64,000 bases of DNA from an uncultured Armatimonadetes bacterium (GTDB lineage Bacteria > Armatimonadota > Hebobacteria > Hebobacterales > Hebobacteraceae): the NCBI GenBank assembly GCA_963699135.1, contig OY969415.1:3833577-3897576 (forward strand). The letters run 5' to 3'. Position numbers and translations under genes: made by a program. Every line of letters starts with the position of its first letter. The first letter of the stretch is position 1. Under the pieces are notes generated by a model. The model was not told the DNA's origin. It made no database searches and saw only the letters and a list, made by a program, of their open reading frames with translations. This document shows positions 553 through 19,956 of this stretch, one piece after another.

Positions 553-3459
553 TCAGGCCGATCTGCTTGCGCGAGCCGCCATTCGTTGGCGCAGCCTCCA
601 CACCAGCCCCTCGCCGCGCAAGCTTCCCCAGATAAGTCCCACCAGCGCCGTCAGCGCCGTCTTCTCCACCACCCCGACCGCCAACTGAACCAGCAGCAGC
701 AGCGGCTTGTAGGGCGCCAGCCACAGCACGTGCGCCGCCCCATCCGCTCTCACTTCGACCCGCCGCGCATGGCCTGCCAGCAGCGCCAGCAGTTCCGCCC
801 GCGCGCTGCCCTCGCCCGCCACCACGATGGAGTCGAACCGCATCTGCCTCAGCGCCGCCACCGTCTTGCGTGTGATCTGATAGCTCACTCCCGCCGCCCC
901 CGGCGCGGAGATCACCTGCTCTCCCGTCTCGTGCGCGGTCTCATCGCGAAGCGAGTCTGGCGACAGCACCGTGATCTCGACCCCGGGGTAGCGCGCCCGC
1001 ACCTGAGCCGCCGCCTCCCGCGCCAGCGCCGCCGATCCGGCCCGGATAATCAGCGTCACGTGGGGCGGCTCCCGCGGGTCCAGCCCCCACGGCGCGCTCC
1101 CGCGCCGCCGCACCAGTGCTTTCAGGCCCGCCTCCGCCAGCGCCGCCGGCAGCCTCCGCGCCAGCTCCCGCGGCGCGGGGGCGGCCACCTTTCGCACCGG
1201 CCGCGCGACCGGTATCGCCATCCGATCCGCAGTCCTCTCCGGCGACTGCATCCACCGCCGCAGCGGCGTCATCACCTGCGCCACCGTCCGATATCTGAAC
1301 GCGTATTCCTTCGCTCGCTCCGCGCAGCGCCGCCGCAGCGTCTCATCCCGCGCCAGTGCCAGTAGCGCCAGCTTCAGCCCCTGCGCGTCCCCCGGCGCGA
1401 ACGTTATTCCCAGGCGCGCGTCGTTGACCGCTTGGCTGATCTCCGTGCCCAGGCTCGTCACCACCGGCAGCCCCGCCCGCAGCATATCCAGTATTCGGTA
1501 CCGGCATCCGATCAGCATCTCGTAGCTGTATCGGTCGATGTTGATCCCCACGTCGCTCTCGAAGTAGTAATTGGGGACGGCCTCAGTCGGCGCCCAGCCC
1601 GTGAAGATGAACCGGTCCGCGAACTCACACCCCTCGATCCGCTCCCGGAACCGATAGAAGGTCTTCTCATCCCTCCCCGGCAGCGCCCCGCCCAGCGACA
1701 CGAACTTGATGCGCGCCTCCTCCGCCATCGCCGCCGTCAGGCCATCGAACAGCGTATCCACATCGGTCCAGGTGTTATAGCCTCCCGCCCACAACACCAC
1801 GAAGTCATCGTCCCCCACCAGCTTCCCTCGCATCACCGTTTCCCGGTGCCGATAGGGCGCATCCTCGATCGCGTTCGGCATGTATTGCACGCGGTCTTCG
1901 CCGTAGTTCCCCGCGCCCAGGCGTCCTATCGCGAACAGCTCCCCCACCGTCGCGTACTTCTGTCGCTGCGACACTACCGAGAACGCGTCACCCCGCGACA
2001 GCGCCGCCCGCTCCCGCGCCCAGGCCACGTGGATTGGCTCGTCGCTCCCATCCAATGCTGCCCGCGCCTGCGCTTCCGCCGGCGCGTACCCGTTCAGGTC
2101 CACCCACAACGGCGCCTCGGTCTTCAGCCGCGACGCGATCCACCCGCCATAGGCGTGCACCGCCACCACCGCCTCGGGTCGGACCTGATCGCAGATCCGC
2201 GCCAGCAGTTCCCCTCCCTCGAACGCCGCGTGCGCGGCCGAGTAGTAGGTCAAATGCTGGCCGCGGAATCGCAGCACCGGCGGCCGGCGATTCTCGTCCG
2301 CGTACGCGCCGGACATCCGCACCCCTACCACCGTCACCTCGTGCCCGTCGGCCATCAGCGCCTGCGCCACGTGCCAGGTGCGGAACGACAGCGCGCCCAG
2401 CCGCAGCTCCTTCTCGAATGGCAGCGGGCAGAAGCCGATCACCAGCACCCGCTTCCCCATCCCCGAGGAGCCGTAGGGGATCTCCCCGGCCTCCACTGCC
2501 TCCGGCGACACTGCGCCCGACGCCAGGCTCAGCACCTCCTCATCTCCCCGCGCCTGGCCCTGGCGTGATCGCTGCTTCGTCGCCAGCAACTCCGGCAACT
2601 GCGCCGCCGCCCGCAGAAACGCCGACCCCAAACGCGGGTTCAGTCGGGGCCGCATCAGCGCCCGCCACAGTTCCGCAAAATGCGCGTTCAGCAAGTGCGA
2701 GTCCGTCAGCGCCTTCCACGTGAACAGGATGCTGTTCTTGGCGAACATCAGGTCCACGTAACCGCCGGGGAAGTTCTTCGACGCATTGGTCTGGCGGTGC
2801 TGATGCACCATCCGGCTCGTCGGCTCGAACAGCAGCCGCCACCCCGCTTTCTGCGCCCGGTAAGAGATGTCAAGGTCCTCGAAGTAGAAGGGCCGGAACA
2901 GCCGGTCGAAACCGCCCAGCTTCAGGAACCGATTCCTGCGCCAGGCGCTCGACCCGCCCCCCGCGTAGATCACCGGGACCGCCTCCTCCGACTCCGGGTC
3001 CTCGTGGCGCAGCACGAACAACCCGCCCTCGAACCGCGCCCGCACCAGTCCCGTCTCTCGCACCAGACCGCCCCCGACTCGCTTCGGCGCCATCTGAATG
3101 TGCGCGGTCACCGCGAACACATCGTTATCCGCGAAGTGGCGCAGCAAGGGGGGGAGGAAGTCCGGCTCGACCAGCATGTCGTTGTTCAGGAAGACCAGCA
3201 CATCGCCGGTGGCGATGTCCGCCGCCGCGTTATTCGCCCCCGCGAAGCGCAGGTTGCGCGTTAGCGCCAGCACTCGGACTTGGGGGAATTCGCGGCGGAC
3301 GTACTCGACCGAATCGTCCGTGCTCGCATCATCGACCACGATCACCTCGTGGTCGCCGCCGGCCTGCTCGACCGCGCGCAGCGCCCGAGGCAGACAGGTC
3401 TCCAATAGCTGGCGGCCGTTCCAGGAAGAGACAATCAGGCTGGCGCGGACGGCGCTCAC
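553..3459 (-). CDS. Two-domain glycosyltransferase: N-terminal GT2 domain fused to a C-terminal GT4 (GT-B, family-1-like) domain
   Basis: The 997-aa track ORF spans 553..3546. It contains IVVDDASTDDS...LNNDMLVEPDF (GT2), then KRVLVIGFCPLP...EVTVVG and downstream GT-B motifs. The probable true start is the GTG at 3459, which overlaps the epimerase stop as GTGA. Confidence 0.85.
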   Translation of the reverse strand: MSAVRASLIVSSWNGRQLLETCLPRALRAVEQAGGDHEVIVVDDASTDDSVEYVRREFPQVRVLALTRNLRFAGANNAAADIATGDVLVFLNNDMLVEPDFLPPLLRHFADNDVFAVTAHIQMAPKRVGGGLVRETGLVRARFEGGLFVLRHEDPESEEAVPVIYAGGGSSAWRRNRFLKLGGFDRLFRPFYFEDLDISYRAQKAGWRLLFEPTSRMVHQHRQTNASKNFPGGYVDLMFAKNSILFTWKALTDSHLLNAHFAELWRALMRPRLNPRLGSAFLRAAAQLPELLATKQRSRQGQARGDEEVLSLASGAVSPEAVEAGEIPYGSSGMGKRVLVIGFCPLPFEKELRLGALSFRTWHVAQALMADGHEVTVVGVRMSGAYADENRRPPVLRFRGQHLTYYSAAHAAFEGGELLARICDQVRPEAVVAVHAYGGWIASRLKTEAPLWVDLNGYAPAEAQARAALDGSDEPIHVAWARERAALSRGDAFSVVSQRQKYATVGELFAIGRLGAGNYGEDRVQYMPNAIEDAPYRHRETVMRGKLVGDDDFVVLWAGGYNTWTDVDTLFDGLTAAMAEEARIKFVSLGGALPGRDEKTFYRFRERIEGCEFADRFIFTGWAPTEAVPNYYFESDVGINIDRYSYEMLIGCRYRILDMLRAGLPVVTSLGTEISQAVNDARLGITFAPGDAQGLKLALLALARDETLRRRCAERAKEYAFRYRTVAQVMTPLRRWMQSPERTADRMAIPVARPVRKVAAPAPRELARRLPAALAEAGLKALVRRRGSAPWGLDPREPPHVTLIIRAGSAALAREAAAQVRARYPGVEITVLSPDSLRDETAHETGEQVISAPGAAGVSYQITRKTVAALRQMRFDSIVVAGEGSARAELLALLAGHARRVEVRADGAAHVLWLAPYKPLLLLVQLAVGVVEKTALTALVGLIWGSLRGEGLVWRLRQRMAARASRSA

Positions 3460-4481
3460 GGCTTCGCCGACGCGCCCCCATGGGCGTTGCTCGTCCAGAT
3501 CGCGGGCGCCTTCGCGCTCGGCAGCTCCAGCGCCTCCTCGCTCCATGGCTGGGGCCCCATGGACTTCGCCCAGACCGCCATCGCCGCTATCGCCTCCTCG
3601 AAGCTGTGCCGCTCCTCATACCCGAGCAGCCGCTCCGACTTCTGCCAGGTGCTGAAGGCGTTCTTCACCTCCCGCGGCCGGTCGGGAACGTGGACGATCT
3701 CGGGCCGGGCGTCGAAGGCGGCACATACCGCCGTGCACATCTCATTCACCGTCACCGCCTGCTTCCCGCCCACGTTGATCACTTGCCGGTCCAGCTCCGG
3801 CCGGAGTTCCGTTGCCTTCAAGAACGCGGGCAGCGAATCGCCAATGTAGCTGAAGGCCCGCTTCTGCTCCCCGTCCCCGTAGACGTAGATCGGCTCCCCC
3901 CGCATGATGCGATTCATGAAGATCGCCACCACGTTGCGGAACGGATCGCACAGGCTCTGCCGGGCGCCGAAGACATTATGCGGGCGGATGATGGTGTAGG
4001 CGAACCCATGCACTTCGGCGAGGATCTCCGTGATCGCCTCCATCGCCGCCTTGTTCACCCCGTACACATCCACCGGTCGCCGCTCCATCACCTCGTCGAA
4101 CGGTGTCTCCTGCTCGCCGTAGACCGCCATCGAGCTGTACAGCACCACCTTTTTCATCCCCGCCCGAATCGCCGGCACCAGCGCGTTCACATACGCCATC
4201 AGGTTCCGGCCGGAGACATCGCGGGGCTGGAATTGCGATGCGCCCTCCCGCGCGTTCGCCGCCAGGTGACACAGCACATCCGGCGGATTGCTGGCGATCG
4301 CCTGTTCCGCGCCCGCCGGGTCCCGCAGGTCGAGCTGGATGAACTTCACCCCCGCGGGGAGGTTGCGCTCGAATCCCCCGCTCAGGTCGTCGATCGCGAC
4401 GACCTCGTGCCCCTGGGAGAGGAAGCCCTCCGTCACGTGCCCCCCCATGAACCCTGCCGCCCCTGTCACGATGATCCGCAC
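3456..4481 (-). CDS. NAD-dependent epimerase/dehydratase (SDR family, UDP-sugar 4-epimerase-like)
   Basis: MRIIVTGAAGFMGGHV (a GxxGxxG Rossmann motif) and a YxxxK-type SDR core. Length is 341 aa. Confidence 0.85.
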   Translation of the reverse strand: MRIIVTGAAGFMGGHVTEGFLSQGHEVVAIDDLSGGFERNLPAGVKFIQLDLRDPAGAEQAIASNPPDVLCHLAANAREGASQFQPRDVSGRNLMAYVNALVPAIRAGMKKVVLYSSMAVYGEQETPFDEVMERRPVDVYGVNKAAMEAITEILAEVHGFAYTIIRPHNVFGARQSLCDPFRNVVAIFMNRIMRGEPIYVYGDGEQKRAFSYIGDSLPAFLKATELRPELDRQVINVGGKQAVTVNEMCTAVCAAFDARPEIVHVPDRPREVKNAFSTWQKSERLLGYEERHSFEEAIAAMAVWAKSMGPQPWSEEALELPSAKAPAIWTSNAHGGASAKP

Positions 4482-4519: not shown

Positions 4520-5038
4520 TCATTTCTGACCCGACCGCGGGGCCTTTCTTGCCCTGCCCACCAGTGCCTCCGTAAGGTCCGTCACCGCCATCCCCGCCAA
4601 GATCAGCAGCAGCGGCAGCACCAGCAGGGCGACACAGGCCTCGGCTATCACTCTCGCCCCCGCGCCCGCCACCCCCGCCGACAGTAGCTCCGAGCCGGAG
4701 AGCGGCCTGATCTCACCCCCCGCCTCCGCCTCCAGCAAGGCCTTCCCTCGCGCCCCCGAGAGCGCCGCCACCAGTGTCGCCTTCCAGAACGCACGGTGCA
4801 GGAACTGGTCACCGCCGTGAACCACCGCCGCCACCACGAACCCGCGCCGCCGCAGCTCCCGCACCACTCCCCGCGCCCCCAGCCCTCCCCAGGCTATCAC
4901 CTCGTCCGCATTCCGCGGCGGCTCCGAACCCACCAGCGCCGTCACCTGCGCCCCTGGATAGCGCGACTTCAGCGCCTCGATGGTCGCCTCCAGTGCCTCC
5001 GTCGGAACGATCGATATCAGCAGCGCCCGCGCTTCCAT
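4520..5038 (-). CDS. Hypothetical protein with a C-terminal TM helix; first member of a 3-copy paralogous 'domain-X' family in this locus
   Basis: 172-aa ORF with the pattern ALLISIVPTEALEATIEALKSRYPGAQVTALVGSE...RRRGFVVAAVVHGGDQ...PLSG and a hydrophobic C-terminus. It is paralogous to 11430..11906 and to the N-terminus of 13102..14557. Confidence 0.5.
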   Translation of the reverse strand: MEARALLISIVPTEALEATIEALKSRYPGAQVTALVGSEPPRNADEVIAWGGLGARGVVRELRRRGFVVAAVVHGGDQFLHRAFWKATLVAALSGARGKALLEAEAGGEIRPLSGSELLSAGVAGAGARVIAEACVALLVLPLLLILAGMAVTDLTEALVGRARKAPRSGQK

Positions 5039-5039: not shown

Positions 5040-6011
5040 CTAATCCCTCGGCGGTTGCGCCGTGTGCCGCCATCCCATCGCCAGCAGTTCGTCGAAACGT
5101 GCCAGCGGAATCCGCCGCGCCCGCTGTATCCGCCGCCTCCGGCTCAGCATCCGCGGCGTCTGCCACAGCGCGCTCGCCACGATCGCCGCCACCAGCCCCA
5201 GCCCATCCCGCCGCGCGATCCCCAGCATCGACTCCCGCAGCCGCTTCGCCATCAGCGGAACCGTCGGCAGCAGCGCCCGCAGCGGCCAGTCCTTCGTCCA
5301 TACGTGCATCAGATTCCGCAGCCCTAGGAACACCGCCCGTCGGCTGTAGATCCCGCGCGATACTCCCTCCCGATGCCGCACCACTGCCGTCGGCACGTAC
5401 CGCGCCCGCCACCCCGCCAACTGCGCCCGCCAGTTCAAATCCGCATCCTCGTAGCTGATGAAGAAGTCGGGGTCGAACAACCCCACCTCCACCAGCATCG
5501 CCCGCCGATACAGCGCCGCCCCCGCGCAGGCCCCGAACACCTCCCGCGGCTGATCGAACCACTCCCCATCCCGCTGCCCCCGCCCGATGTCATACACCCA
5601 CCCGTCCCCGGTGCAGGCATGCCCGGCCGAGTTGATAAGCGTGGTGTCATCGTAGTACACCATCTTCGGCGCGCACATCCCCACCTGCGCCTCCGCCCGC
5701 ATCGTCCCGACCAGCTCCTCCAGGCAGCGCGCGTCCAGCTCCGTATCATTGTTCAGCGAGAACACGAACTCGCCCCGGCTTTCCCCCATCCCCGCATTCA
5801 TCGCCCGCGAAAACCCCATGTTGCGCGGAAAGCGGATCACTCTTACCTCGGGGTATCGCTCTGCGACGAGTTCGAGCGAGCCATCCGTCGAGCCGTTGTC
5901 CGGCATGATGATCTCGAAATCCTGGAACGTTTGCCCGCGGATGGAGTTGAGACAGGTGGGCAGCAGATGCGCCCCATTCCAGTTCAACAGCACGATCGTG
6001 AGCGCAGGCAT
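5040..6011 (-). CDS. Glycosyltransferase family 2
   Basis: MPALTIVLLNWNG...IIMPDNGSTDGS...SLNNDTELD (GT2 motifs). The start ATG overlaps the stop of the upstream gene (ATGA at 6011). Confidence 0.8.
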   Translation of the reverse strand: MPALTIVLLNWNGAHLLPTCLNSIRGQTFQDFEIIMPDNGSTDGSLELVAERYPEVRVIRFPRNMGFSRAMNAGMGESRGEFVFSLNNDTELDARCLEELVGTMRAEAQVGMCAPKMVYYDDTTLINSAGHACTGDGWVYDIGRGQRDGEWFDQPREVFGACAGAALYRRAMLVEVGLFDPDFFISYEDADLNWRAQLAGWRARYVPTAVVRHREGVSRGIYSRRAVFLGLRNLMHVWTKDWPLRALLPTVPLMAKRLRESMLGIARRDGLGLVAAIVASALWQTPRMLSRRRRIQRARRIPLARFDELLAMGWRHTAQPPRD

Positions 6012-7111
6012 CAGTCCGGCCCGGCCTCCCGGCCCAGCCCGAACCGCCGCAGCGCTTTCCACCCCGCCTTCGCCACCCACTCCGACACGCGGTACAGCCG
6101 CCGAGATGTCACCCGCTCGAACTCCTCCCGCATCAGGTGCATCTCCCGCCGGATCTTTATCATCTCCCCCTTGTCCGGGTCTAGCTCGCCGAACGCCTCC
6201 CTCACCCACGCCCGCCCCGCCTCCGCGAGATCGGCATCGCGCGTCAGCGCCCCCAGCTCCTCCTCCGGCGGCGGCGTCCGCCCCTTAAGCGCGTCCCTCA
6301 CCCCCAGCGCGTGGGCATAGCTCGTCACCGCCTCGTAGAACGAGTTCACTGTCACCGCCCGCGCCGCCTCGATGATCCCCAGGTCCTTCCTCAGCTCCGG
6401 GTGCTTCCGCCAGAACACCACCGCCGCCCGCCCGCACAGCCGCGTCCGCGCCAGGTGCCTGTCCAGGCTCGGCGCGTGGTGGTGATAGGTCAACGCGGCC
6501 CTCCGATACACGATTCGCAGCCCCCGCTGCACCATCCGGTACGCCAGCTCGATGTCCTCATAGGCCGCCTGCCGGAAGTCCTCGTCGAACCCCCCCGCCT
6601 CCTCCAGCCAGTGCCGCTGAATCGAGCAGTTCGCGGTGTAGAAGGTCCAGAAAGTCACGTTCTCCGGATCGTTGATGTAGGTGAAGCCGAACTGCGCCCC
6701 GTGATCCAGGAAGAACATCAGCGGCGTTATCTCCAGGTCCGGGTGCCACGACACGTGGCCCACCACGCCCACGTCACCGCTGCGTTCGTGCGCCTTCAGG
6801 TGCTCCTGGATCAGCCCCCGGTCGGGGATGCAGTCATCCCCCGTGAACAGGATGATCTGCCCCTTCGCCTCCCGTGTCCCCAGATTCCGGGCCGCCGCCG
6901 GCCCCTTGTTCTCCTGGCGGTAGTACCGCAGCCGCGACTCCGGCGCGCCCACCGCCGCCACCACCTCAGACGTCCCATCCGTCGCGCCGTCATCCACCAC
7001 CACTAGCTCATAATCATCCGCGCTCGCGCTCTGCTCGTGCAAGAGCTTCCGCAGAGTCTCGCCGAGCAGCTCGCTGCGATTGTAAGTAGGGACGACGACT
7101 GTCAGCCTCAA
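6011..7111 (-). CDS. Glycosyltransferase family 2 with a C-terminal coiled-coil extension and conserved tail motif
   Basis: LRLTVVVPTYNRSELL...VVVDDGATDGT...FTGDDCIP (GT2). The tail reads ...EEFERVTSRRLYRVSEWVAKAGWKALRRFG. The likely TTG start at 7111 overlaps the upstream stop and follows a GGGAG Shine-Dalgarno sequence. Confidence 0.75.
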   Translation of the reverse strand: MRLTVVVPTYNRSELLGETLRKLLHEQSASADDYELVVVDDGATDGTSEVVAAVGAPESRLRYYRQENKGPAAARNLGTREAKGQIILFTGDDCIPDRGLIQEHLKAHERSGDVGVVGHVSWHPDLEITPLMFFLDHGAQFGFTYINDPENVTFWTFYTANCSIQRHWLEEAGGFDEDFRQAAYEDIELAYRMVQRGLRIVYRRAALTYHHHAPSLDRHLARTRLCGRAAVVFWRKHPELRKDLGIIEAARAVTVNSFYEAVTSYAHALGVRDALKGRTPPPEEELGALTRDADLAEAGRAWVREAFGELDPDKGEMIKIRREMHLMREEFERVTSRRLYRVSEWVAKAGWKALRRFGLGREAGPD

Positions 7112-8583
7112 CGCTTGACTCCCAACGCGCGTAGCATACCCCACCCGGCCTGCGCCGCCTTCACCGACCACCGGTACAGCCGCCGTGAGGTGATCTCCCG
7201 AAGCTCCTGCCGCTGCTGCGCGAGCGACTCCTCGACGCTCCGCGCCCACCCCTCCACCTCCTGCGTGCGGGCGAACAGCCTCTGCACTTCGTACTCCCGG
7301 TCCGCCACCAGCCGCGCCAGCCAGTCCGCGTGCCGCCGCAGCGCCTCCACTTGCGCCGCCTGCCGCTCCGGGTCGCTCCGGTGTTCGTGCAGCGCCACCG
7401 CCAGCCGATACCCCTCCGCGGTCCTCTCCGCCGCCCGCTCCCAGGTATAGTTCGCCGCGATGTGCTCCTTCAGCCGCTCCGACTTCGGCGCGCCATAGGC
7501 CGCTAGCACCGCCTCCCGTATCGGGTCGATCCGCGCCGGATCGCAGTACCAGGCCATCTCCCCGAAGTACTCCGGCGGTGAACCGCGGTTCGTCGACACG
7601 ATGCTGCACCCCGCCGCCCCGGCTTCGAGCTGCGTCAGCCCCGGCAACTCCACCCAGCTCACCAGCGCGTGCACCTTCGCCGCCGCGTAAGCCGATGCCA
7701 GTTCCTCCTCGGATAGCGACGGGATGAAGTGCGTGTTCTCATCCGCATACCGCCGGCACAGATCGAGATAAGATTCTGGGTTCGCCTGCCCCACGATTAC
7801 CAGCGGAACCCCCGACCCCCGCATCGCCGCGATCAAGCTGAGCTGATTCTTCTTCTTCTCCACCCGCCCCACGCACAACACGAAATCCTGCACCCCATGC
7901 TTCTGCACGAACAGCTCCGGCCTCGCCTCGAACGACGTCGGCTTCGCCGCGTTCGGCACCACCACTGACCGGCTCAAGTCCATCCCGAACGCCTGACTCA
8001 AGTACTCGGCGTTCATCTGCGCGTTGGGCAGGTACACCGTCGCCAGATCGATCAGCGCCTGCCTCTGAAGCTGCTGCCGCGCCCGTCCCCGCATCTCGAT
8101 CGGATCCTGCGGCGGCGCTTTGCGCGGTGTGGGGTTTCCCTGGCCCGGCTCCGGCAGCTCCCAGTAATCCGTGTCCCCCCACTCCAAGAACTCCGTCAAA
8201 TCCGTGTGCACCGTCGACAGCGCCACCGGCTTCCCCTGAGCCAGCGCGTTCAGGCAGTGCTGATACGGCTCCTCCGGCCGGTCCAGGTTGATGGCATGCA
8301 CCAGATCATAGCCCGAGAGATCGACCTCCGTCTCCCCGGTCATCTCGGCCGAGACGCCCAGGTTCCGCAGGTGGGGGAGCATCATCTCCAACTGCACCAC
8401 ATCCCCGCCCGGCTTCTCCCGGAAGTCCGGCCTGATCTGCATCACCACCCGCAGCTCCCGCGTCGACGGGGCAACCGCCGCCCGCCGCGGCATCAGCCGC
8501 GCGCCCGTCTGCTGTTCCAGCAAGAACCGCGCCAACTCGGGCGACATCGCGGCCGCCTGCCGCATCCCCTCCCGCTTCCGCAT
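7108..8583 (-). CDS. Glycosyltransferase family 4 (GT-B) with a C-terminal coiled-coil and the same conserved tail motif
   Basis: Core FVLCVGRVEKKKNQ...EELASAYAAAKVHALVS...GLTQLEAGAAGCSIVST (GT4 EX7E region). The tail reads ...QELREITSRRLYRWSVKAAQAGWGMLRALG. Start chosen at MRKREG, downstream of the stop of the pyruvyl transferase gene. Confidence 0.75.
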   Translation of the reverse strand: MRKREGMRQAAAMSPELARFLLEQQTGARLMPRRAAVAPSTRELRVVMQIRPDFREKPGGDVVQLEMMLPHLRNLGVSAEMTGETEVDLSGYDLVHAINLDRPEEPYQHCLNALAQGKPVALSTVHTDLTEFLEWGDTDYWELPEPGQGNPTPRKAPPQDPIEMRGRARQQLQRQALIDLATVYLPNAQMNAEYLSQAFGMDLSRSVVVPNAAKPTSFEARPELFVQKHGVQDFVLCVGRVEKKKNQLSLIAAMRGSGVPLVIVGQANPESYLDLCRRYADENTHFIPSLSEEELASAYAAAKVHALVSWVELPGLTQLEAGAAGCSIVSTNRGSPPEYFGEMAWYCDPARIDPIREAVLAAYGAPKSERLKEHIAANYTWERAAERTAEGYRLAVALHEHRSDPERQAAQVEALRRHADWLARLVADREYEVQRLFARTQEVEGWARSVEESLAQQRQELREITSRRLYRWSVKAAQAGWGMLRALGVKR

Positions 8584-8656: not shown

Positions 8657-9694
8657 TCATCGGCCCCGTGCCGCGTACTCCTGCATCCCCATCGCCGCGC
8701 AGAAATCCCACACCTTCTGCACATACGGCAGCGCCACAAACGGAATCCCCGCGTCCGCCGCCAGCATCACCGCATGCAGCCGCATCCCTATCATCAGGTC
8801 GAACTGCGCCAGCGCCCCTACCAGCTCGGGCGGCCCCGCCGGCGGCTCGACAATCCGCGCTGCCCCCGGATTCCCCGCCGCCTCCAGCACCCGCTCCAGC
8901 GCCGTCCGGTCATCGTCGTGCAGCCGTTGCATCGGCAGCAGCGCCACCGTCGCCCCCAACCGCTCGACCAGTGCGCGCACCAGCTCGCCCGCCCGCGCCG
9001 TCAACCGCTCCATCGCCTCCGGCGCGCCCGCCTCTACCCCGCCGAACCGGAACCAGGGCCGCAGGTTCAGCGCGATCAGCGGACGACTCGCCGCCTCCAG
9101 CCCAGCGCGGCTGAGCCAATCCCGAGCCGCTCCTGCTTCACCGGGCTGCACCAACATCGCCGGATCGGCCGCCTCCTGCACCCGCGTCCGCGCCACCCCG
9201 CACTCCACCAGCAGCTCTGCCGAGGCCGCGTCGCGCACCGTGATCGCGCTCGCCTCCTCGCCGAGGAAACGCGCCACCCGCCGCGCCGTGTCCGTCATCA
9301 GCGGGCCCACCCCGACCCCGTACAACATCACCGGCCGGCTCGCCGCCCGCGCCGTCGCCGTGATCTTCGCCAGCTCGTATAGCCACTGCCGGTCCGGGGG
9401 TTCCGTGAGCAGACGCGCCAGGCTGGGGTTGTAGTCCACATCGTAGAGCAGCCCGCCCCCGCCGAGGATCACCAGATCGGCCTCCTCGATCGCGCGCGCC
9501 AACTCCGGCCGATCATCGTAGGAGAGTGCAGTCGCGTCGAAAGCCGAGGTGAGATGCGACAGCTCCGGCCCGCCCGCCACCTTCACCGCGCGGCCACCCG
9601 CCACCCCGTGCAGCTCGGTCAGCATGCCCCAGAGAATCGCATCATCGCCCAGATTAGAGTAGCCCGCCGCCCCGCAGACTAAGATGTGACCCAT
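8657..9694 (-). CDS. Polysaccharide pyruvyl transferase (CsaB/WcaK-like)
   Basis: MGHILVCGAAGYSNLGDDAIL...ADLVILGGGGLL...LMIGMRLHAVMLAADAGIPFVAL, the signature of the PS_pyruv_trans family. The upstream N-terminal ORF extension is discarded. Confidence 0.8.
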   Translation of the reverse strand: MGHILVCGAAGYSNLGDDAILWGMLTELHGVAGGRAVKVAGGPELSHLTSAFDATALSYDDRPELARAIEEADLVILGGGGLLYDVDYNPSLARLLTEPPDRQWLYELAKITATARAASRPVMLYGVGVGPLMTDTARRVARFLGEEASAITVRDAASAELLVECGVARTRVQEAADPAMLVQPGEAGAARDWLSRAGLEAASRPLIALNLRPWFRFGGVEAGAPEAMERLTARAGELVRALVERLGATVALLPMQRLHDDDRTALERVLEAAGNPGAARIVEPPAGPPELVGALAQFDLMIGMRLHAVMLAADAGIPFVALPYVQKVWDFCAAMGMQEYAARGR

Positions 9695-10086: not shown

Positions 10087-11232
10087 CTACCTCCCGGCCA
10101 CCAACAGATAGCCCCTCTGCGTTAGCACCGTGAAGAGCAAGTGCAGTTGCACGCGCACCTGGTCTCGGATCGGGATGGCCTGCACGGCCTCCGGAGGAGC
10201 CTGCGAGGCTATGTACTGCCAGAACACGTCCTGGAGTGCGTCCGCCTCGCGCCCGTAGCCCTGACGTCGCAACACCCGCACCGCGCAGCATGACACCGCC
10301 AGCGCCTTCGCCCCGTCCTCCGGGCGAAGCTCCTTGGCGTGCCGCGCCTGGCTCCTCGCACTCTCGATGCGCACGACGTCGTCATCCTTGATGAGATCGA
10401 GAAGCTGCAGGTAGTGATCGATCGCGTCGCGCACGGTGGCCTGCTGGGAAGCGGACCAGTCGTGGTCGAGTGCGCTCGTGGAGAGCGCATAGCCGAGCAC
10501 TTCATCGAAGAAGGCAATACAGTCAGGGTTCACCTCGAAAGCGAAGGCGACGCTTCTCCGCGGATCCCGGATCGAGGAGGGAGGTGCGACGGGCTGGTCT
10601 GCGACCGGCATGCCCGTTGATCTCACGAAGGCAAGATGGGCATCCATCAAGCGCTCGTCGATCGCGGACGAGAGGAGGACGTAGTACCCGGGCGCGGGGA
10701 AGTGGCTCTCATCGTGCATGTCGAACAGGACGTCCGGCGCGAGCGCCGTCACGACCCGCGCGCCAGGCCGCCATCTCCGGGCAGGCAGTGGACGCGTTCC
10801 AGTACATGATCCGCTCATAGGGCGGCTCCCAGGACCCTCCGGCGAACACGCGCAGGTCCCCAGGGGCGAGGAACCACTCCTCATTGCGCAACACTCCGTC
10901 CGGATTGATGGTCGGGATAATCGCCCAGTTACACTGGAAGCGCATGACCTGCGGGTTCCGCTGTCGGAGCTGGTCACAGAGCCAGAACATGGTCAACGCG
11001 CAGACCGGCTCAGTTGGGTCCTCAAACCCCCACAGCAGCGCTGTTCTATCGTAGCCGCCATCGAAGCGGATCATGTCGATAGGCAGACCTTCCGCCGACT
11101 GACCGATTGTCTCGACGCTGAAGCCTGGCTGGCCTCGCAGCGCATCTGTCTGCGCCCGGATCTCTGCGAGCGTCAGATACCGCGCATACGTCGGCACAGA
11201 CGCCAGCAGCTCCTGTGGAAGCGCCTGCATGA
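10087..11232 (-). CDS. M14-family zinc carboxypeptidase, interrupted by one frameshift near 10780
   Basis: The N-terminal half (track ORF 10709..11473 frame, from MQALPQELL) contains ...IMYWNASTACPEMAAW. The C-terminal half continues in the 10087..10977 frame (...VLFDMHDESHFPAPGYY...). A 1-nt indel lies in a CGCGCG run. Confidence 0.6.
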
Positions 11233-11319
11233 CATCTCCTAACCGTTCGTTGCTTCGGCAGCTTGCTGCCGAAGCTTTCCCGCTGCCACCCTTTGTCCTC
11301 GCCGTTCCGCCCGCCATCG

Positions 11320-11420
11320 GCGGGCGCCAATCTGCGCAATCTGCGTAATCTGCGGTTACTGCCGTTGCCGTTCCCGCCGAAGGCGGCCCCCCCCTCTCTG
11401 CGCTCTCTGCGTCTCTGCGG
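11320..11420. repeat. Composite repeat, modules C and D, R orientation (GCGCAATCTGCGCAATCTGCGTAATCTGCGGTTACTGCCGTTGCCGTTCC...)
   Basis: Reverse complement of the GGAACGGCAACGGCAGTAACCGCAGATTGCGCAGAT... module found at 33.85, 46.8 and 47.5 kb. Confidence 0.7.
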
Positions 11421-11429
11421 TGAATGCCT

Positions 11430-11906
11430 CTACCCCTCCGCCTCCCCGACCCTCCCCACCAACCCGCTGCCATACAACCACACCGCCACCAACCCGAACC
11501 ACATCAGCGCCACCGGCGCCAGCAGGAATTGATCCACTATCGCCCACGCCAGCGCGAGCGCGCCGCGTCGCATCCCGAAGCGATAGAAGTAGTCCGGTGA
11601 CGGCACCAGCAGCTTGTGCCGCGCGCCGCTGAGCAGCGCCCTCATCCGCGCTCGCTCATGCCCGCCCGACATCGCGATGCAGACCGCGTCGAACCGCATG
11701 CCGCGCAGCCGAAGGAGCCCCTCGCTCCCGAGCGTATGGAAGCTCGCGCCCGGGAACGCGCGCTGTATCGCCCCCAGACACTGCTCGTCGAGGCCGGGGG
11801 TGACCAGGACGCGCAGCACCGGCGGCGTGCCGAGGTCGGCCCCTGTCACCCGCTCGCGGAAGAAGTCCAGCACATACCCGGCGCAGTAGCGCAGCAGGCC
11901 CCTCAT
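11430..11906 (-). CDS. Hypothetical protein, domain-X family member 2 (C-terminal TM helix)
   Basis: MRGLLRYCAGYVLDFF...AIQRAFPGASFHTLGSEG...RGMRFDAVCIAMSGGHERARMRALLSGARHKLL is paralogous to 4520..5038. Its ATG overlaps the probable GT4 stop (ATGA). Confidence 0.5.
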   Translation of the reverse strand: MRGLLRYCAGYVLDFFRERVTGADLGTPPVLRVLVTPGLDEQCLGAIQRAFPGASFHTLGSEGLLRLRGMRFDAVCIAMSGGHERARMRALLSGARHKLLVPSPDYFYRFGMRRGALALAWAIVDQFLLAPVALMWFGLVAVWLYGSGLVGRVGEAEG

Positions 11907-13105
11907 CGCCGCGCCCCGCGGCCCGCGTGAGTGCATCTTCCAGCCGCTCCGCCAGCCGGTCGTTGTCGTGCTCGCGCGCCGCCAGGTCACGACCAGCGGC
12001 CGACAGCCGCGCCTGCAGCCCCGCGTCACTCAGTGCTCGCGCCAATTGGTCGGCGAACGACCTCGCGTCATCTGCGACCAGCAGCTCCCGTTCGTGCGCG
12101 ACGTTGAGCCCCTCCGCGCCGCGGCTCGTCGTCACCACTGGCAGGCCCGCCGCTATCGACTCGACCACCTTGTTGCGCACCCCGGACCCCAGGCGCAGCG
12201 GCGCGGCCAGCGCGGCCGCCTCGTCCATCGTCGCGCGCAGATCGGGCACGAAGCCCACGATCTCCACGCTCGCGTCGCGCTCCATCCGGCCCAGCGCCTC
12301 CGGCGCCACTCGCGCCAGTTCCTCTCTCGTGCCGGTTCCGACCACCACTAGGCGCGCCGCGGGATTCGCCTTCACTACCTGTGGCCAGATCCTCCTGATA
12401 GAGGAAGAGCAGACCGTCGAGATTGGGGAAGTGCTCCATGTGCCCGAGGAAGAGCACGCGACCCGGCGCCGGCCGGCGCGGCCGCAACGCGAGCTGCTCG
12501 GGATCGACTCCGGGGGGGATGGCGGTGGTCTGCGTGCGCGGCGCCATCGCGTTGGTGATCCGCGCCTCTCGCTCCGAGACCGCGACCACGTGATCGGCCT
12601 TCCGGAACACCCCGGTCTCGTAACGCAGCATCCGCAGCCAGTCGAGCCGCGCCCGACACCGCTCCCAACCGCGCGCGGCCTCCATGCGCCGGCGATAGGC
12701 TAGCGATGTGAGTTCCAACGCAGTAACTACGCACGGCGCCGGCCGCGTCCATCGCCGGTACTGCGCCATGTTGCTGCTCGCGAACTGCACCACCTCCGGC
12801 CGGAAGTGGCGCGTCACCTCCGCGACGTCCGCCGCCAGCTCCTCCGAGTAGTACTCCGTCACCCATCGGGGCAGTTCCGCGAAGGAGCTGTAAGCATGTG
12901 GTGTTGGCTTCCGCAGCCGCGCCCTCGCCGGCTCGCAGTGACGCCCGATCTCTGCCAGCCCGGCCGCTTCCGCCTCCCGCTCGTAGCACCCCACGAACGC
13001 CACCTGATGCCTCTGCGCCAGCCGCCGCAGCCAACCCCAGATCTCCGCGTGGCCGCCTGCCACCGGCGGATAGGGGAGGAACGGGCTGACGAGTAGGATC
13101 CTCAC
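11903..13105 (-). CDS. Glycosyltransferase family 4, interrupted by at least two frameshifts (near 12385 and near 11940)
   Basis: N-terminal domain VRILLVSPFLPYPPVAGGHAEIW... is in track frame 12068..13336. The C-terminal domain ...KANPAARLVVVGTG...RLGSGVRNKVVESIAAGLPVVTT... is in frame 11656..12375. The GTG start overlaps the upstream stop (GTGA). Confidence 0.65.
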
Positions 13106-14557
13106 TCCGATTCCCCGCCCGCCTCCGGAGTTGCCAGCGCCAGGATATCGCGGTCCCCCAGATCGCCTCGACGCCGCGCCCGCCATCGCCTCAGCAGCGC
13201 CGTCGGCAGCATTGGTAGCGCCGCCAGCAGCGCCCGGCACATCATCCCCTCGCCCACTGGCAGCTCGCGATACAGCCGCGCGCACACGTACGCCCAGTGC
13301 TGCGCCAGCATCCCCGGATCGCGCATGTTCTTCCACGTGAAGATCAGCGCGTTCTTCAGAAACGCCTCATTCGCGTAGGCGTCCCCGAACCGCTTGCCAA
13401 TCCACGCCCGCCGCTGGTGCCACACCGACGCCTCCGGCTCGAACACCGAACGCCACCCCCGCCGCCACGCCCGATAGCCCAGCTCGATGTCCTCCCAGTA
13501 GAGCGGCCGGAAGATGGTCTCGAATCCGCCCAGCGCGGGTACCGCGCGCGGTGATACACCGACGACGCGCCGCCCGCGTAGAGGATCGGCCCGGCCTTCA
13601 GCGGTGGCAGGTGATAGGGTTCGGTAATGCCCGAGAACGCGGGCACGACGTTCCCCGTCTCCATTTGCGAGCCCTCGGGCAGCTCGATCCGCGAGCACAC
13701 CGCGAACGTATCCTCTCGATCGAAGTGAGGCAGGATCGCTCGCAGAAATCCCGGCCGCACTTGCACGTCGGTGTTGATCAGCGCGAACAGCGGCGTTGTG
13801 GTCGCCGAGATACCCGCCCTCACCGCGCCCGCGAACCCCTGGTTCCTCTCCAGCCGCAGCACCTTCACACTCGGGTATTGCTGCCGCACATACTCCGCCG
13901 TCCCATCCGTGCTCGCGTCGTCCACCACCATCACCCGATGCTGCCGCCCCGCCTCCGCCAGCAGCGGCGGCAGACAGAAGTCCATCAACTGCTTCTGGTT
14001 GTAGGTGGGGACGATGAACGTAACGGTGCGGCCGATGGGTGGGCCGGGGTCGGGGATCGGTGGCCTTACCACTGCCAGCCGCCAGATCCAGTCGGCCCCG
14101 CGCACCTTCAGCATCACGCCCAGGTACAGGTATGATAGCGATTTCGCGAGGATCATGCGCGCCCACCATCGCCCGCTCAGCGGGCGATAGGGAGGCAGGT
14201 GAAGTTGGTGCCACTCGCCCGCCCTGCCGTACGCGAGCGTGACCCGCGCCCCGGCCAGCGCCCCCGTCAGCTTCCCGCGCCGGCCGCCCTCTCCCGTCAG
14301 CAGCAACACCGCCACGTCATACCGCCGCCCCCGCGCGCCGATCATCCCGCGCGGCCCCCCCGCTTCTCCCAGCGCTTCTATGGAGAGATCTGGGGCAATC
14401 GCGCGCAGCTCCGCCAGCGCTTGCTGACCGGCCGCGGACTGCGTGGAGCCGGCGAGGAGCCCGCGCCGCCATTCCTTCGCGCCGGGGAGATCGGTGAGAT
14501 CGACAGGGGTGAGATAGACGTTTCCTACAGTTCTGATCAGCTCAGACAGGAGGGGCA
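13102..14557 (-). CDS. Fusion protein: N-terminal domain-X (member 3), TM segment, then GT2 domain; one frameshift near 13555
   Basis: MPLLSELIRTV...RAIAPDLSIEALGEAGG...RGRRYDVAVLLLTGEGGRRGKLTGALAGARVTLAY...PLSG (domain X), then MILAKSLSYLYLGVMLKV (TM), then TFIVPTYNQ...VVDDASTDGT (GT2). The GT2 C-terminus continues in frame 13102..14214. Confidence 0.65.
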
Positions 14558-15325
14558 TAGGGAGCCCTCGCTTGCGCCGCCGCGCGCTCCACTTCGTCCA
14601 CCGACGTCCGATACTTCGCCACCACGTCTTCGCTCGCGCCATCCATCATCATGTGCCCATGGTCCAGCCAGATCGCCCGCTCGCAGAACTTCCTGATCGA
14701 GTTGAGTTCGTGCGACACCACCAGGATCGTCTTCCCCTACTTGCTTGAACTGCCGCAGCCGCTCGAACGACTTGTGCTGGAAATGCTCGTCGCCCACCCC
14801 CAACACCTCGTCGATCAGCAGCACATCCGGGTCCAGATGCACCGCCACCGAGAACCCCAGCCGCACCACCATCCCACTCGAATACGTCTTCACCGGCGCG
14901 TCCATGAACTCGCTCAGCTCGGCGAAATCCACGATCGCATCGTACTGCTGCGCGGTCTGCTTGCGACTGAGGCCCAGCAGGCTCGCATTCATAAACACGT
15001 TCTCGCGGCCGGTCAGGTCGGGGTGGAATCCTGTCCCGAGTTCCAGCATCGGGCACACCCGCCCCTCCACCTGCACCGACCCGCGCGTTGCCACCAGCAC
15101 CCGCGCCAGGATCGCCAGCAGCGTGCTCTTCCCCGATCCGTTGGGCCCCACCACGCCCACCACCTCGCCGGGGTTCACCGTGAACGACACGCTCCGCAGC
15201 GCCCAGAACTCCTCGTAGCCCGTCTGCCCCCGGAAGAACGCCACCAGCGCCTCCTTCAGCGTGTTCACCCGCTGATGAGGCCGCCGGTACTGCTTCCAGA
15301 GATCGCGGACCTCGATCCTGCTCAC
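14543..15325 (-). CDS. ABC transporter ATP-binding protein (Wzt/TagH-like polysaccharide exporter ATPase), one frameshift near 14720
   Basis: GVVGPNGSGKSTLL (Walker A), YSSGMVVRLGFS (ABC signature) and LLIDEVLGVGD (Walker B). The C-terminus GKTILVVSHELNSIRKFCERAIWLDHG is in a different frame. The GTG start overlaps the permease stop, and the stop overlaps the next gene by 15 nt. Confidence 0.7.
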
Positions 15326-16233
15326 TACGCCCGCTCCGCAAAAAGATACGACTTCCGATGGAAGATGATGTGCCCCGCCACCGCGAACACGATCGCGATC
15401 GCGGCCGATCCGAGCACATACCACCCCATGGGATACTGCGCCTGCAACTGCGCCTGCAGCGCCGCCGCCGCCTCGGGGGTGCGAGTCGCGCCCGAGCTCA
15501 CCACGATCGGATTCCCCCCGCCCTCCAGCAGTCCGCTGCGATAGCCCAGCACGCACATCGCCACCGGGTCCAGCAGATAGAGCTGCTTGATCTGCGGCAG
15601 GTAGTCCGAGATGATCTGCGTCAGCCAGTTCTTCCCCGTCACCTGCTTGCCCAGGAAGTTGCCCAGCGGATACAGGATCGGTGTCAGGAAGAACCACAGC
15701 GACAGCAGGTTGCCGACGATGAACTTCACATCGGCATAGAACACGCTCCACGCCGCCAGCATCGACGACAGCCCATAGGCGAACACGGCGATCAACACCG
15801 TCGCGGGGATCACCAGCCAGTAGTGATAGTTGACATCCACCCGCCAGATCGCGAACAGCCCCAGCAGCACCAGGAAGGCGAGCGCAAGGTGCACCAGGTT
15901 GGAGATCAGCGCGGCGATCGGCAGAATGCAGCGGGGGAAATAGGCCTTCTTCACCAGCGCCAGCTCCGCCGTCACACAGGCGGTGCTGTCGAGCACGGTC
16001 TGGGAGAAGAACAGCCACGGCAGGAACCCGGTGATGAGGAACGCGGTGTAGTCCTTCTGCGGGTTCTCCATGATGATCTTGAAGACGAAATACCACACCC
16101 CGATCTGCATCAGGGGATTCAGCAGCGACCAGAAGAACCCCAGAATCGAGTTCTTATAGCGCACCCGGAGATTGCGTCGGACGAGGTTCCACAGCACCTC
16201 CCGATAGCGCCAAAGCTCGGCGATTTCCTTCAT
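15325..16233 (-). CDS. ABC-2 type transporter permease (Wzm-like)
   Basis: 302 aa with six hydrophobic segments. The N-terminus ...NLVRRNLRVRYKNSILGFFWSLLNPL is the characteristic ABC-2 permease motif. Confidence 0.8.
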   Translation of the reverse strand: MKEIAELWRYREVLWNLVRRNLRVRYKNSILGFFWSLLNPLMQIGVWYFVFKIIMENPQKDYTAFLITGFLPWLFFSQTVLDSTACVTAELALVKKAYFPRCILPIAALISNLVHLALAFLVLLGLFAIWRVDVNYHYWLVIPATVLIAVFAYGLSSMLAAWSVFYADVKFIVGNLLSLWFFLTPILYPLGNFLGKQVTGKNWLTQIISDYLPQIKQLYLLDPVAMCVLGYRSGLLEGGGNPIVVSSGATRTPEAAAALQAQLQAQYPMGWYVLGSAAIAIVFAVAGHIIFHRKSYLFAERA

Positions 16234-16319
16234 AATGTGGCCCGCAAACGCCTCCGCCGGCGATTATACAGGGCGCAGCAGTGGCAGTCAAAGCGGCGGT
16301 TGCTCCGTGGCGGCCTCGC

Positions 16320-16600
16320 CATTGCTGTCATCCCGAGCGACTCGCCACTCCGAGCAGAGCGAGAAGGCGAGTTATGCGAGGGATCAAGACCTGCGGAGCC
16401 GACCGGAGGAAGGCGACTCCCCATTCCCAGGGCAAGAGTCCCTAGGCTGCCATCGGCGGCCGGGATGGCGGCCTGCGAAGCCGGCTTAGCCACTCGTCTC
16501 CTGCCATGGCCTCTGCCGTTTCCGTCCGTAGGGGCGTGATTCATCACGCCCTCCCATCTGTCATTGCGAGGGGCGGCCGCTTCCGCCCCGTGGCAATCTC
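16320..16600. repeat. Composite repeat region in R orientation (TGATCC/CAGGATGACAGCAACGGC module, GGCGTGATTCATCACGCC module, family-A hairpin)
   Basis: Reverse-complement matches to modules present downstream of 21 kb in forward orientation. Confidence 0.55.
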
Positions 16601-16796
16601 GCAGTTCCCTCCGGCGCAGGTGGCCTCTGACTATCCGCGTCCATCACACCCCCACCCTTGTCCGCCCACCAACCACCATGTCCCACTGCCGGCCTTCTTC
16701 CCGGCCGGCCCTCCCACTACCATGGCTCCGGCGTGGGAAGGCGTCACGGAGTCACCCGACAGAGCCGACCCCGCCCAAGTGAGAAAGGGGATCAGA

Positions 16797-17102: not shown

Positions 17103-17177
17103 CACAGGCCGATCGCACGCCCGAACGGAGCTGACGGGGAGCCACCGACTCCCCTCCCTGCCCACGCGCCGCCCCTC

Positions 17178-17224
17178 CCACTGTCATTGCGAGGGGCGGC
17201 CGCCTTCGCCCCGTGGCAATCCCG
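17178..17224. repeat. Hairpin repeat, family A, R orientation
   Basis: CTGTCATTGCGAGGGGCGGCCGCCTTCGCCCCGTGGCAATCC. Confidence 0.7.
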
Positions 17225-17306
17225 CCGTCGCCGTTCCGCTGCTGAAGCAGCGGAGACGCGCCGCGAAAAGCGGCACGAAAAGTGGCGTTTTCGCAAGAGT
17301 GCACCG

Positions 17307-18249: not shown

Positions 18250-19956
18250 ATGACACGGGAGGAGTTGCTTGAGCTGATCGCCAGCGTCCGCCGATATGAG
18301 AGCGAACTTGGCTCCGTAGAAGTGAAGTCTGCTCATCGGGGCACGCCGAAACGCCTCTTCGAACTCCTCTCTGCACTCGCCAACCGCACTGGTGGCGGCG
18401 CTATCCTCTTCGGGCTGGAGGAAAGCACGGACTACCGAGTCGTGGGAGTGGGCGATGCTAGCCGTCTACAAGAGGATGTTGCCAGCATTGCAGCCGAGAT
18501 GGAGCCCCCTCTTCGTCCGGAATTCACGGTTGACGAGGTGGAAGGCCACACTGTCGTCGCAGTGGAAGTGCCAGAGGTGCCCGTGCAGCAGCGCCCCTGC
18601 CACCTCAGGTCCTCTGGCCTACAGAAGGGCTCGTTCATCCGAGTCGGCAATAGCAACCGCTTGATGACCGACTACGAGATTCTTCGGATACATCAGCGCC
18701 CGCATCCAACCCACATATGACGGGGAGGTAGTGAGTGAAGCAACACTTCGAGGACCTAGACGACACGAAGCTGCTCGCGTATCTCAGCGCCCTGAGGCAG
18801 AGCCGCACGGACGCCTCTTACCTTGAGCAGCCGCGGGAACGGGTGCTAATGCAGTTCCGCATCGCAAAGGAAGACGAGGGTGTCCTGCGGCCGACTCTGG
18901 CTGGGTTGCTGGCCTTCGGGAGATATCCGCAGAGCTTCGAGCCGCAGCTCGTTATCACCTACATTCAGTTCTACGGCACGAGCGAAAATGAGAAGACGCC
19001 TCGGGGTGAGCGCTTCCTGGATAGCCGCAAGTTCGAGGGTGCACTGCCAGACCTCGTTGATGCCGCTGTGCGGCACGTCATGGCCAGCCTGCGCAAGAGC
19101 AGTCTGATAGAAGGACTCTACCGAAGAGATATACCAGAGTATCCTGAGGAGGCCGTCCGTGAGGCCGTGGTGAATGCAGTCGTTCACCGCGATTACAGCA
19201 ACTACGTGCGAGGCAGCTATGTCCAGATTCGGCTTTTCGCGGATCGCCTGGAGATCCAGAGCCCGGGTGGCCTCTACGGCAATGTGACCGAGGACACCCT
19301 CGAAATGGAGCACTCGACCCGGAATCGAGTCCTGATGCGATTCCTAGAGGACCTCCGAATCGCAGAGAATCGCGGCAGCGGCATCAGCGCTATGAACCGC
19401 GCCCTGCGCGATGCCAATCTGGAGCCACCCAGGTTCCAGGACAAGAGGAGTTCGTTCTGGGTCACTTTTCGAAGTCACTCGCTGATGAGTCCAGACACCA
19501 TCACGTGGCTCAACCAGTTTGCCGCGCAGCCTCTCAACGACCGCCAGCGACTCACGCTCGCCTACCTCCGTAGCAACGAACAGATCACCAACCCTATCTA
19601 CCGCCAGCTCAACCATGTGGACCCGCTGACCGCTACCAAGGAGCTGCAGGAGCTCGCCAGGACCGGGCTAGTAGAGCAGCACGAAGTGAGGAGATGGGCT
19701 CACTGACGTTCTGAATCCCTTACTTGTCCAGCCTGCGAGGGCAGAGACGCGGACCAATGAGGAGAAGGTTCTGGCATATGTTCAGGAGCATGGTTCCATT
19801 CGCAACCCGGAATGTCGGGATCTGCTGGGCCTACGCAGGCATCAAGCGCGCTTGCTCCTGAAGGGGCTCGTTGAGAAGCGTCTCTTAAGGCGTACGGGAG
19901 AGACGCGCGGCACTCGCTACGTGCTCCCCTATGCCCTGGCCCCGCGGGATAGCTGA
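18250..19956 (+). pseudogene. Fragmented COG2865-type regulator gene (AlbA_2/Schlafen-like N-domain + HATPase_c_4 + C-terminal wHTH), split into three frames
   Basis: Fragment 18250..18720 is an AlbA_2-like domain (frame 1). Fragment 18735..19706 is an HATPase_c_4-like domain (frame 3). Fragment 19732..19956 (frame 1, no start codon) reads EEKVLAYVQEHGSIRNPECRDLLGLRRHQARLLLKGLVEKRLLRRTGETRGTRYVL, the typical wHTH tail of this family. Confidence 0.65.

Follow-up and report, generated by a model that had tools for sequence, protein, structure and literature searches.

The C-terminal region of WbdD, known from Escherichia coli O9a and Klebsiella pneumoniae O3, comprises a coiled-coil molecular ruler, an amphipathic helix that associates with the membrane, and a site for the recruitment of WbdA. 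In WbbB of K. pneumoniae O12 and in ORF6 of serotype O7, which belong to pathways that depend on a transporter of the ATP-binding cassette (ABC) type, a coiled coil lies between the terminator and the polymerase glycosyltransferase modules of a single polypeptide. MinD and FtsA possess membrane-targeting helices at their extreme C-terminus, which are basic, aromatic and amphipathic and of the G[WF]xxLRR[FL]G kind. Regarding pyruvyltransferases, CsaB makes the ligand for SLH domains, and Armatimonadetes are reported to have CsaB/SLH/OmpM systems (bioRxiv 10.1101/2021.05.31.446380). In vitro, WbbZ ends polymerisation through terminal pyruvylation, and a number of authors' candidates for chain-length terminators are pyruvyltransferases, the validation of which is pending (PMC10629545). 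We analyzed a stretch of 64,000 nucleotides from contig OY969415.1 of an uncultured Armatimonadetes bacterium, hereafter called the window, in which two adjacent genes encode a GT2 and a GT4 glycosyltransferase ending in the same kind of tail. This tail is an old, lineage-restricted C-terminal module of the Armatimonadota, approximately 45 residues long and made up of three parts, for which a function as membrane-proximal foot of the two enzymes is tentatively proposed.

The GT2 gene (6011..7111, minus strand) encodes 366 amino acids and ends with ...EEFERV-TSRRLYR-VSEWVAKAGWKALRRFGLGREAGPD, in which T335 lies at position 6109. The GT4 open reading frame (ORF; 7108..8583, minus strand) encodes 491 amino acids ending with ...QELREI-TSRRLYR-WSVKAAQAGWGMLRALGVKR (T465 at position 7191). 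Minus-strand translations give the fuller C-terminal ends ...EEFERVTSRRLYRVSEWVAKAGWKALRRFGLGREAGPD for GT2 and ...QELREITSRRLYRWSVKAAQAGWGMLRALGVKR for GT4. The motif common to both is ...[VI]TSRRLYRxSxxxAxAGWxxLRxxG. A shared tail motif had been claimed in an earlier analysis based on the letters alone (the sequence-only reading), and this claim was confirmed, as both translations end as quoted there and a BLASTP comparison of GT2 with GT4 aligned the tails alone (21 of 59 positions identical, E=3e-7). A degenerate DNA pattern of the motif matched exactly two sites in the 64 kb and none in 100 dinucleotide-preserving shuffles. Scanning of the window with a hidden Markov model (HMM) of the tail did not reveal a third copy.

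The first part of the tail is the end of an alpha-helical coiled coil, of which it comprises the final two to three heptads (ELxRLxxEFxRV). It is followed by a nearly invariant core, (T/S/E)(S/A)RRL(Y/H)R, which is located at a skip in the heptad register, and by a basic, Trp/Tyr-bearing amphipathic helix of approximately 20 residues (xSxxxAxAGWxxLRxLGxxR), with which the protein terminates. In GT2, the module reaches from D313 to D366 (6014..6175, minus strand; 70.9 bits with the tail HMM) and contains a short helix, the core motif V334-S343 (VTSRRLYRVS; 6083..6112, minus strand), the basic aromatic amphipathic end E344-R361 (EWVAKAGWKALRRFGLGR; 6029..6082, minus strand) and five extra residues. 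In GT4, the core motif I464-S473 (ITSRRLYRWS; 7165..7194, minus strand) is preceded by a coiled-coil stalk of 72 amino acids (residues 393-464; 7192..7407, minus strand), which extends from the end of the GT-B core to TSRRLYR, and followed by the corresponding basic aromatic end V474-R491 (VKAAQAGWGMLRALGVKR; 7111..7164, minus strand). The hydrophobic moments of the terminal helices, 0.67 in GT2 and 0.55 in GT4, are among the highest within each protein, and their net charge is +5 to +6. Eight Lys/Arg, three Asp/Glu and four aromatic residues were counted in the last 33 amino acids of GT2, eight, two and three, respectively, in those of GT4.

That the tails are appended to unrelated catalytic folds could be corroborated. 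GT2 belongs to the GT-A type (PF00535, E=1e-28, 100.6 bits), GT4 to the GT-B type (PF00534, E=1e-16, 61.3 bits; also PF13692), and both assignments, which concern the catalytic parts, are above the curated cut-off. An EpsD-like NCBIfam model covers residues 3-240 of GT2 only. Foldseek related the core of a GT4 structure model to the retaining GT4 enzymes GlgM, MshA and BshA (E=1e-15 to 1e-11) and also to PimA; this search was informative for the catalytic core alone and gave no information on the helix. The TTG start codon of the GT2 gene and the GT4 stop have 4 nt in common, and the stop codon of GT2 in turn overlaps the ATG of the next gene, which encodes a third glycosyltransferase (GT2, 5040..6011).

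It might be argued that the similarity is an artefact or a feature of the nucleotide level, caused by a recent duplication of the 3'-end or gene conversion, by an RNA or translational-coupling element, or by a chance accumulation of Arg and Ala in high-GC DNA. Both motifs are indeed situated just upstream of overlapping stop/start junctions, and a genome with 68% GC is enriched in Arg, Ala and Gly codons. However, the two tails of the window differ at 26 of 78 bases (8, 7 and 11 at the first, second and third positions of 26 codons), so that their DNA is merely about 67% identical, and the TSRRLYR codons of the two genes differ at synonymous sites. In tails from 13 related loci, approximately half of the third codon positions (13-14 of 26) were different and the first and second positions conserved. 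Within the 9-codon core, GT2-type and GT4-type tails of the collected loci differed on average at 1.18 first, 0.27 second and 4.66 third codon positions. Divergence at the third positions along with preservation of the other two demonstrates that selection acts on the peptide. Moreover, GT2-type and GT4-type tails were distinguishable at every locus and were not homogenised within genomes. Tails of the same genome (0.522) were barely closer to each other than tails of different genomes (0.511; permutation p ~0.05, uncorrected for phylogeny), indicating that there is neither ongoing gene conversion nor clear co-evolution. By the codon-position counts and this comparison, a recent duplication with identical DNA, which the sequence-only reading had named as an objection to its own claim, gene conversion and an RNA or coupling element were ruled out. 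Considering also the shuffled sequences and the database search described below, in which essentially nothing else was found, an artefact is highly improbable.

A tail profile built from 18 tails was searched against 1.84 billion representative proteins. Only 21 matches were obtained at E <=0.001 and, besides a few repeat-protein artefacts, all of them are members of these two families or fragments thereof. A word-indexed homologue search with the two tails alone yielded no candidates and with 16 tails only short fragments at contig ends. Pfam recognized the glycosyltransferase domains but nothing over the tails, NCBIfam gave for the 93-residue tail nothing but an amidase match (E=0.015) that was judged spurious, and a PDB sequence search with the tail resulted in E values of 4 or more. 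Since Pfam, NCBIfam and PDB contain no match, a catalogued generic domain such as a PilZ fragment, the other objection considered in the sequence-only reading, is ruled out. On the other hand, the notion of a module in general use has to be abandoned, as the profile search led to two orthologous families in one phylum. What remains of it is a discrete module, conserved at the peptide level, on two folds encoded by one ABC-transporter-dependent operon, i.e. a module of one glycan-assembly system.

Scans with the DNA pattern uncovered eight loci among the species representatives of GTDB and, in metagenomes, 29 stretches. Four of the eight are labelled Armatimonadota/Armatimonadetes (including Candidatus Hebobacterum), three "uncultured bacterium" and one, a short contig, Bacillota. 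On the latter (L006; JAUVSA010000035.1, labelled Bacillota bacterium, 12 kb), the GT4 tail is identical to that of the Armatimonadota-type locus L001 and the GT2 tail deviates from its counterpart in L001 at only three positions; this contig has probably been mis-binned. Applied to 42 related loci, the tail HMM detected 35 ORFs of the GT2 family, 32 of the family in which GT4 is joined to a pyruvyltransferase (PyrT-GT4) and six end-of-contig fragments. Both tails occurred on adjacent genes in 31 of the 42 loci, all of the Armatimonadota type, the others being cut by contig ends. Close relatives of GT4 (53-75% identity) mostly have a length of approximately 840 amino acids and are composed of a PF04230 pyruvyltransferase, GT4 and the same tail. 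Distant homologues (35-44% identity, 330-380 amino acids) end right after the catalytic domain, which identifies the tail as an add-on. RRL(Y/H)R is invariant across the lineages, TS is replaced by SS, SA or EA in some GT2 tails, and in the divergent lineage L012 TSR(R/K)LYR is kept but the rest has changed. In the GT2 tails of the window's clade, the Trp has moved from position 8 to 11 (RLYRWSEG to RLYR(A/V)SEW), a shift by three residues that leaves it on the same face of the helix.

Two further loci are worth mentioning. L004 (OY970296.1, 33..2092) harbors tandem paralogues of the tail-bearing GT2, the second with the variant core VSARRFYRWSEW, and the tail is retained in both. The protein P0046 (485 amino acids, from a 3-kb contig of low GC content) is a GT4 homologue with 35% identity whose coiled coil of approximately 100 residues ends with ...ERIRSTPAYRVYRYFKDRRFF. 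Its architecture (GT4, coil, basic aromatic end) is alike, its terminal sequence different, which hints at a recurrence of the design outside the Armatimonadota. Other polysaccharide enzymes possess a coiled coil followed by an S-x-S-W-R-x-T motif, and a link of the tail to this wider motif is conceivable.

The sequence-only reading had placed a coiled-coil-like segment of roughly 60 residues in front of both tails. This turned out to be true for GT4 but not for GT2. The AlphaFold2 model of GT4, calculated from an alignment of 65 sequences (mean pLDDT, the predicted local distance difference test, 90.7), shows the GT-B core followed by one unbroken helix of 83 residues (404-486) that includes TSRRLYR (465-471). 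Within this helix, pLDDT values of approximately 86-93 are maintained as far as residue 460, and they drop to 75-48 in the final 40 residues. When the hydrophobicity of the spacer is averaged, the strongest period is 3.5 residues, the value that a coiled coil should give. In the consensus, the a/d seam reaches the Val preceding TSRR and continues thereafter with its register displaced by one residue (L, W, A, A/G, V/L, L), which places the core at a heptad discontinuity. From the end of the catalytic core to TSRRL, the stalk measures 65 residues in 25 of 33 orthologues. Other lengths are 72 (in the window and two others), 86 and 93, corresponding to +7, +21 and +28, and also 76 (+11) and 82. 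The distance from the motif to the C-terminus, by contrast, is exactly 27 residues in 31 of the 33. Among 36 orthologues, pairwise identity amounts to 0.68 in the catalytic core, 0.49-0.50 in the stalk and 0.71 in the last 28 residues. The stalk thus behaves as a spacer and the end as a functional site. In GT2, Pro and Gly residues break up the 60 positions preceding the motif, and the helix that runs into it comprises only about 20 residues, starting at a conserved DP(D/E)K (DPDK, from residue 311, in the GT2 of the window). In this family, a conserved GRAW precedes TSRRL at a distance of 32, 35 or 39 residues. The restriction of the long coil to one of the two proteins is a pointer to a stalk geometry like that of WbdD.

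The GT4 ORF had been taken for a whole gene, which had to be revised. Because its relatives are fused to an upstream pyruvyltransferase and a frame change is present in the window, ORF 7108..8583 is most likely the 3' two-thirds of a fusion gene, the 5' part of which is ORF 8657..9694 (minus strand). The latter encodes a CsaB-like polysaccharide pyruvyltransferase (PF04230, E=9e-31), the N-terminal domain of the fusion in relatives. TIGR03609 (CsaB) is its best-matching family (E=2e-43, 148.7 bits), with a score under the equivalog cut-off of 213.1. The frame change, at 8684..8700 on the minus strand, adjoins a run of four G. When the window was compared by tblastn with the intact proteins of L001, one internal frame change was found in each of four cluster genes, besides PyrT-GT4 (~8684-8700) those for Wzt (~14733-14735), a GT2 of 491 amino acids (~13536-13539) and a GT4 of 400 amino acids (~12392-12399). 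Each of these sites adjoins a short run of G or C. On the metagenome contig L031, whose tails differ from those of the window at only four positions, the fusion is intact. Hence, the four frame changes are either assembly indels or signs of a very recent pseudogenisation.

The cluster includes an ABC exporter in the same operon. Wzm (PF01061) is encoded at 15325..16233 (minus strand), and just downstream of it lies the gene for Wzt (about 14596..15325, minus strand, with the internal frame change near 14733), which has the nucleotide-binding domain only. Wzt orthologues consist of 238-260 amino acids and lack a carbohydrate-binding module, and tblastn covers the window Wzt over residues 1-243 of 260. 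The synteny with Wzm/Wzt also exists in L001-L003. On contigs with the fusion, the gene order is Wzm, Wzt, GT2 (491 amino acids), GT4 (400 amino acids), radical-SAM/SPASM, PyrT-GT4 with tail and GT2 with tail, followed by GT2 (324 amino acids), a 170-residue hypothetical protein, an epimerase, a GT2-GT4 protein (~985 amino acids), a HAD hydrolase, GT2, a second 170-residue hypothetical protein and GT4. In the window, the radical-SAM/SPASM gene is cut to its first ~158 codons (11436..11906), after which an M14-carboxypeptidase-like ORF (10709..11473) and ORF 10087..10977 are located, both absent from L001 and L002. A domain of about 150 residues followed by a transmembrane helix, termed domain X, was encountered four times in the cluster (4520..5038; at the C-terminal end of 553..3546; at the N-terminal end of 13356..14642; 11430..12029). 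It is fused to either end of enzymes or stands alone after tail-less GT2 genes, the copies being related with pairwise BLASTP E values of 4e-6 to 0.02, and it has no Pfam or NCBIfam match. Domain X has the appearance of another membrane-anchoring device in this pathway, distinct from the tail. In the region ~16200-20000 of the window, the GC content falls from ~0.68 to 0.60-0.63, and where the cluster ends on its upstream side, the genes switch to the other strand and the GC skew changes its sign. Beyond the cluster, the first large ORF (18735..19706) contains a HATPase_c_4 domain; at the equivalent place, L001 has genes for SLH-domain proteins.

A modifying enzyme is combined here with a stalk quantised in heptads, a conserved basic end of amphipathic character and a Wzm/Wzt operon. 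This architecture, together with the precedent of WbbZ, led us to the proposal that the shared tail might be a membrane-proximal foot co-localising both enzymes in a WbdD-like geometry. We favor this explanation with reserve; it may well be correct but is far from assured. The coiled-coil part of the tail would oligomerise and the terminal amphipathic helix would lie on the cytoplasmic face of the membrane, with its Arg residues directed to anionic lipids and Trp/Tyr at the interface. Both enzymes could thereby be held at one assembly site beside the Wzm/Wzt exporter, possibly as mixed oligomers. GT2, with only about 20 helical residues above the foot, would remain close to the membrane, and the pyruvyltransferase-GT4 fusion would be held away from it by its stalk of 65-93 residues (at full extension, approximately 10-14 nm). 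Candidates for a distal, late or capping step are pyruvylation and the sugar that GT4 adds. Besides the stalk lengths and the amphipathic, basic and aromatic nature of the tail, its preservation in the GT2 tandem duplicates supports a foot. Several observations weigh against it. On its hydrophobic face, the terminal helix carries many Ala/Gly residues, which makes this face only moderately hydrophobic, the AlphaFold2 model of GT2, in which a helix break at S336-R337 is hinted at, is of low confidence (nine sequences, pLDDT 52.7) and usable for secondary structure at most, and the tails of the same genome gave no clear signal of co-evolution. In classical WbdD systems, termination is coupled to export by a carbohydrate-binding module of Wzt, which is missing here, and the stalk is far shorter than the WbdD coil of ~200 Å. 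Furthermore, the sequence of membrane-targeting helices is usually poorly conserved, but the conservation of this tail matches that of the catalytic core, and a specific protein contact would account for it at least equally well.

Alternatively, both enzymes may use the tail to dock on one and the same protein, and not on lipid, with the invariant RRLYR core and the small-residue stretch AxAGW packing on a helix of this partner. Candidate partners are Wzm/Wzt and the proteins with domain X and its transmembrane helix, the latter of which would then be the real anchor. A lipid-binding helix is not usually as conserved as the catalytic core, the Ala and Gly residues of the conserved face are small enough for helices to pack tightly, the four modules of domain X and transmembrane helix make membrane-anchoring subunits a theme of the cluster, and WbdA is recruited through a protein-protein contact with the C-terminal region of WbdD. 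On the other hand, a strongly basic and aromatic extreme C-terminus is typical of interfacial lipid binding, and the reduced cluster of L012, in a messy assembly, keeps both tails without stand-alone domain-X genes called nearby. Docking is thus an unlikely, albeit serious, explanation. The two tails may also be independent, simple membrane-targeting sequences of the MinD/FtsA type whose likeness is due to descent, in which case there would be neither co-assembly nor a ruler. Their extreme C-terminal position, amphipathicity and positive net charge, the lack of significant same-genome co-evolution and a Wzt whose domain content does not indicate terminator-coupled export would all agree with this. 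However, the shared region runs approximately 20 residues upstream of the amphipathic helix into the heptads and the invariant RRLYR core, its length (27 amino acids plus heptads) and conservation go beyond the needs of membrane targeting, and a heptad-quantised stalk with a conserved modal length argues for a spacing role. We consider simple targeting rather doubtful. A sorting or secretion signal and a tail-anchoring transmembrane helix were rejected, since the enzymes are cytoplasmic and the last 18 residues, charged ones among them, are neither long nor apolar enough.

The proposal of a foot can be carried further. The tails might co-assemble as a parallel hetero-oligomeric foot, and GT2 and the fusion might together form one ruler that sizes and pyruvate-caps a secondary cell-wall polymer that would act, in diderm Terrabacteria, as the ligand of SLH/OmpM. 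The partner would then be recruited by a copy of the shared tail instead of a separate docking domain, and the system would do without a carbohydrate-binding module on Wzt. Genes for SLH-domain proteins flank the cluster in L001. This extended version is speculative and, in our opinion, improbable. If the foot proposal is true, the principle of a coiled-coil ruler, so far a matter of proteobacterial O-antigens, extends to an uncultured phylum that branches deeply, and likewise to a pyruvyltransferase and an exporter devoid of a carbohydrate-binding module. The same terminal helix on each enzyme would be a simple route to join enzymes of different folds in one complex, and the product may be a pyruvylated polymer tethering SLH/OmpM proteins in Armatimonadota. 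The practical value is modest: a 45-residue module that had been unannotated is now defined, and gene models in these genomes have been corrected.

What the locus has in common with the WbdD system is an ABC-transporter-dependent glycan operon with Wzm/Wzt encoded in the same cluster, an order of N-terminal modifying enzyme, extended coiled coil and short C-terminal element, which is proposed to act at the membrane and to bring in a glycosyltransferase, and a stalk whose length varies by whole heptads. The extended coiled coil is present in GT4/PyrT-GT4 only, as GT2 is devoid of it. What separates it from WbdD is, apart from the lack of a detectable sequence relationship (the comparison of the tail profile with PDB, in which the WbdD C-terminal region is not contained, was empty), the nature of the distal enzyme, a CsaB-like pyruvyltransferase with GT4 instead of a kinase/methyltransferase, and a Wzt without a cap-recognising carbohydrate-binding module. 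Moreover, the partner glycosyltransferase bears a copy of the same tail, whereas the WbdD system uses a distinct recruitment site. In WbbB and ORF6, the glycosyltransferase modules follow the coil; here, the protein terminates with the coil, and the matching end is borne by a second protein. The distribution of modules over polypeptides is known to be flexible. With the helices of MinD and FtsA, the tail shares, according to the in silico data, a short amphipathic helix with a basic and a hydrophobic face at the extreme C-terminus. Unlike these helices, it is longer, preceded by the invariant RRLYR and heptads and conserved like a catalytic domain. Regarding the ketal-pyruvyltransferases, finally, the upstream or fused PF04230 domain matches TIGR03609 (CsaB) best, and WbbZ caps and terminates a polymer in vitro. 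The known CsaB and WbbZ proteins are stand-alone, in contrast to the fusion with GT4, coiled coil and tail described here, whose pyruvyltransferase part scores below the cut-off of the CsaB equivalog. The tail is a variation on the principle of a coiled coil with a C-terminal anchor, a principle that is itself already known from these systems.

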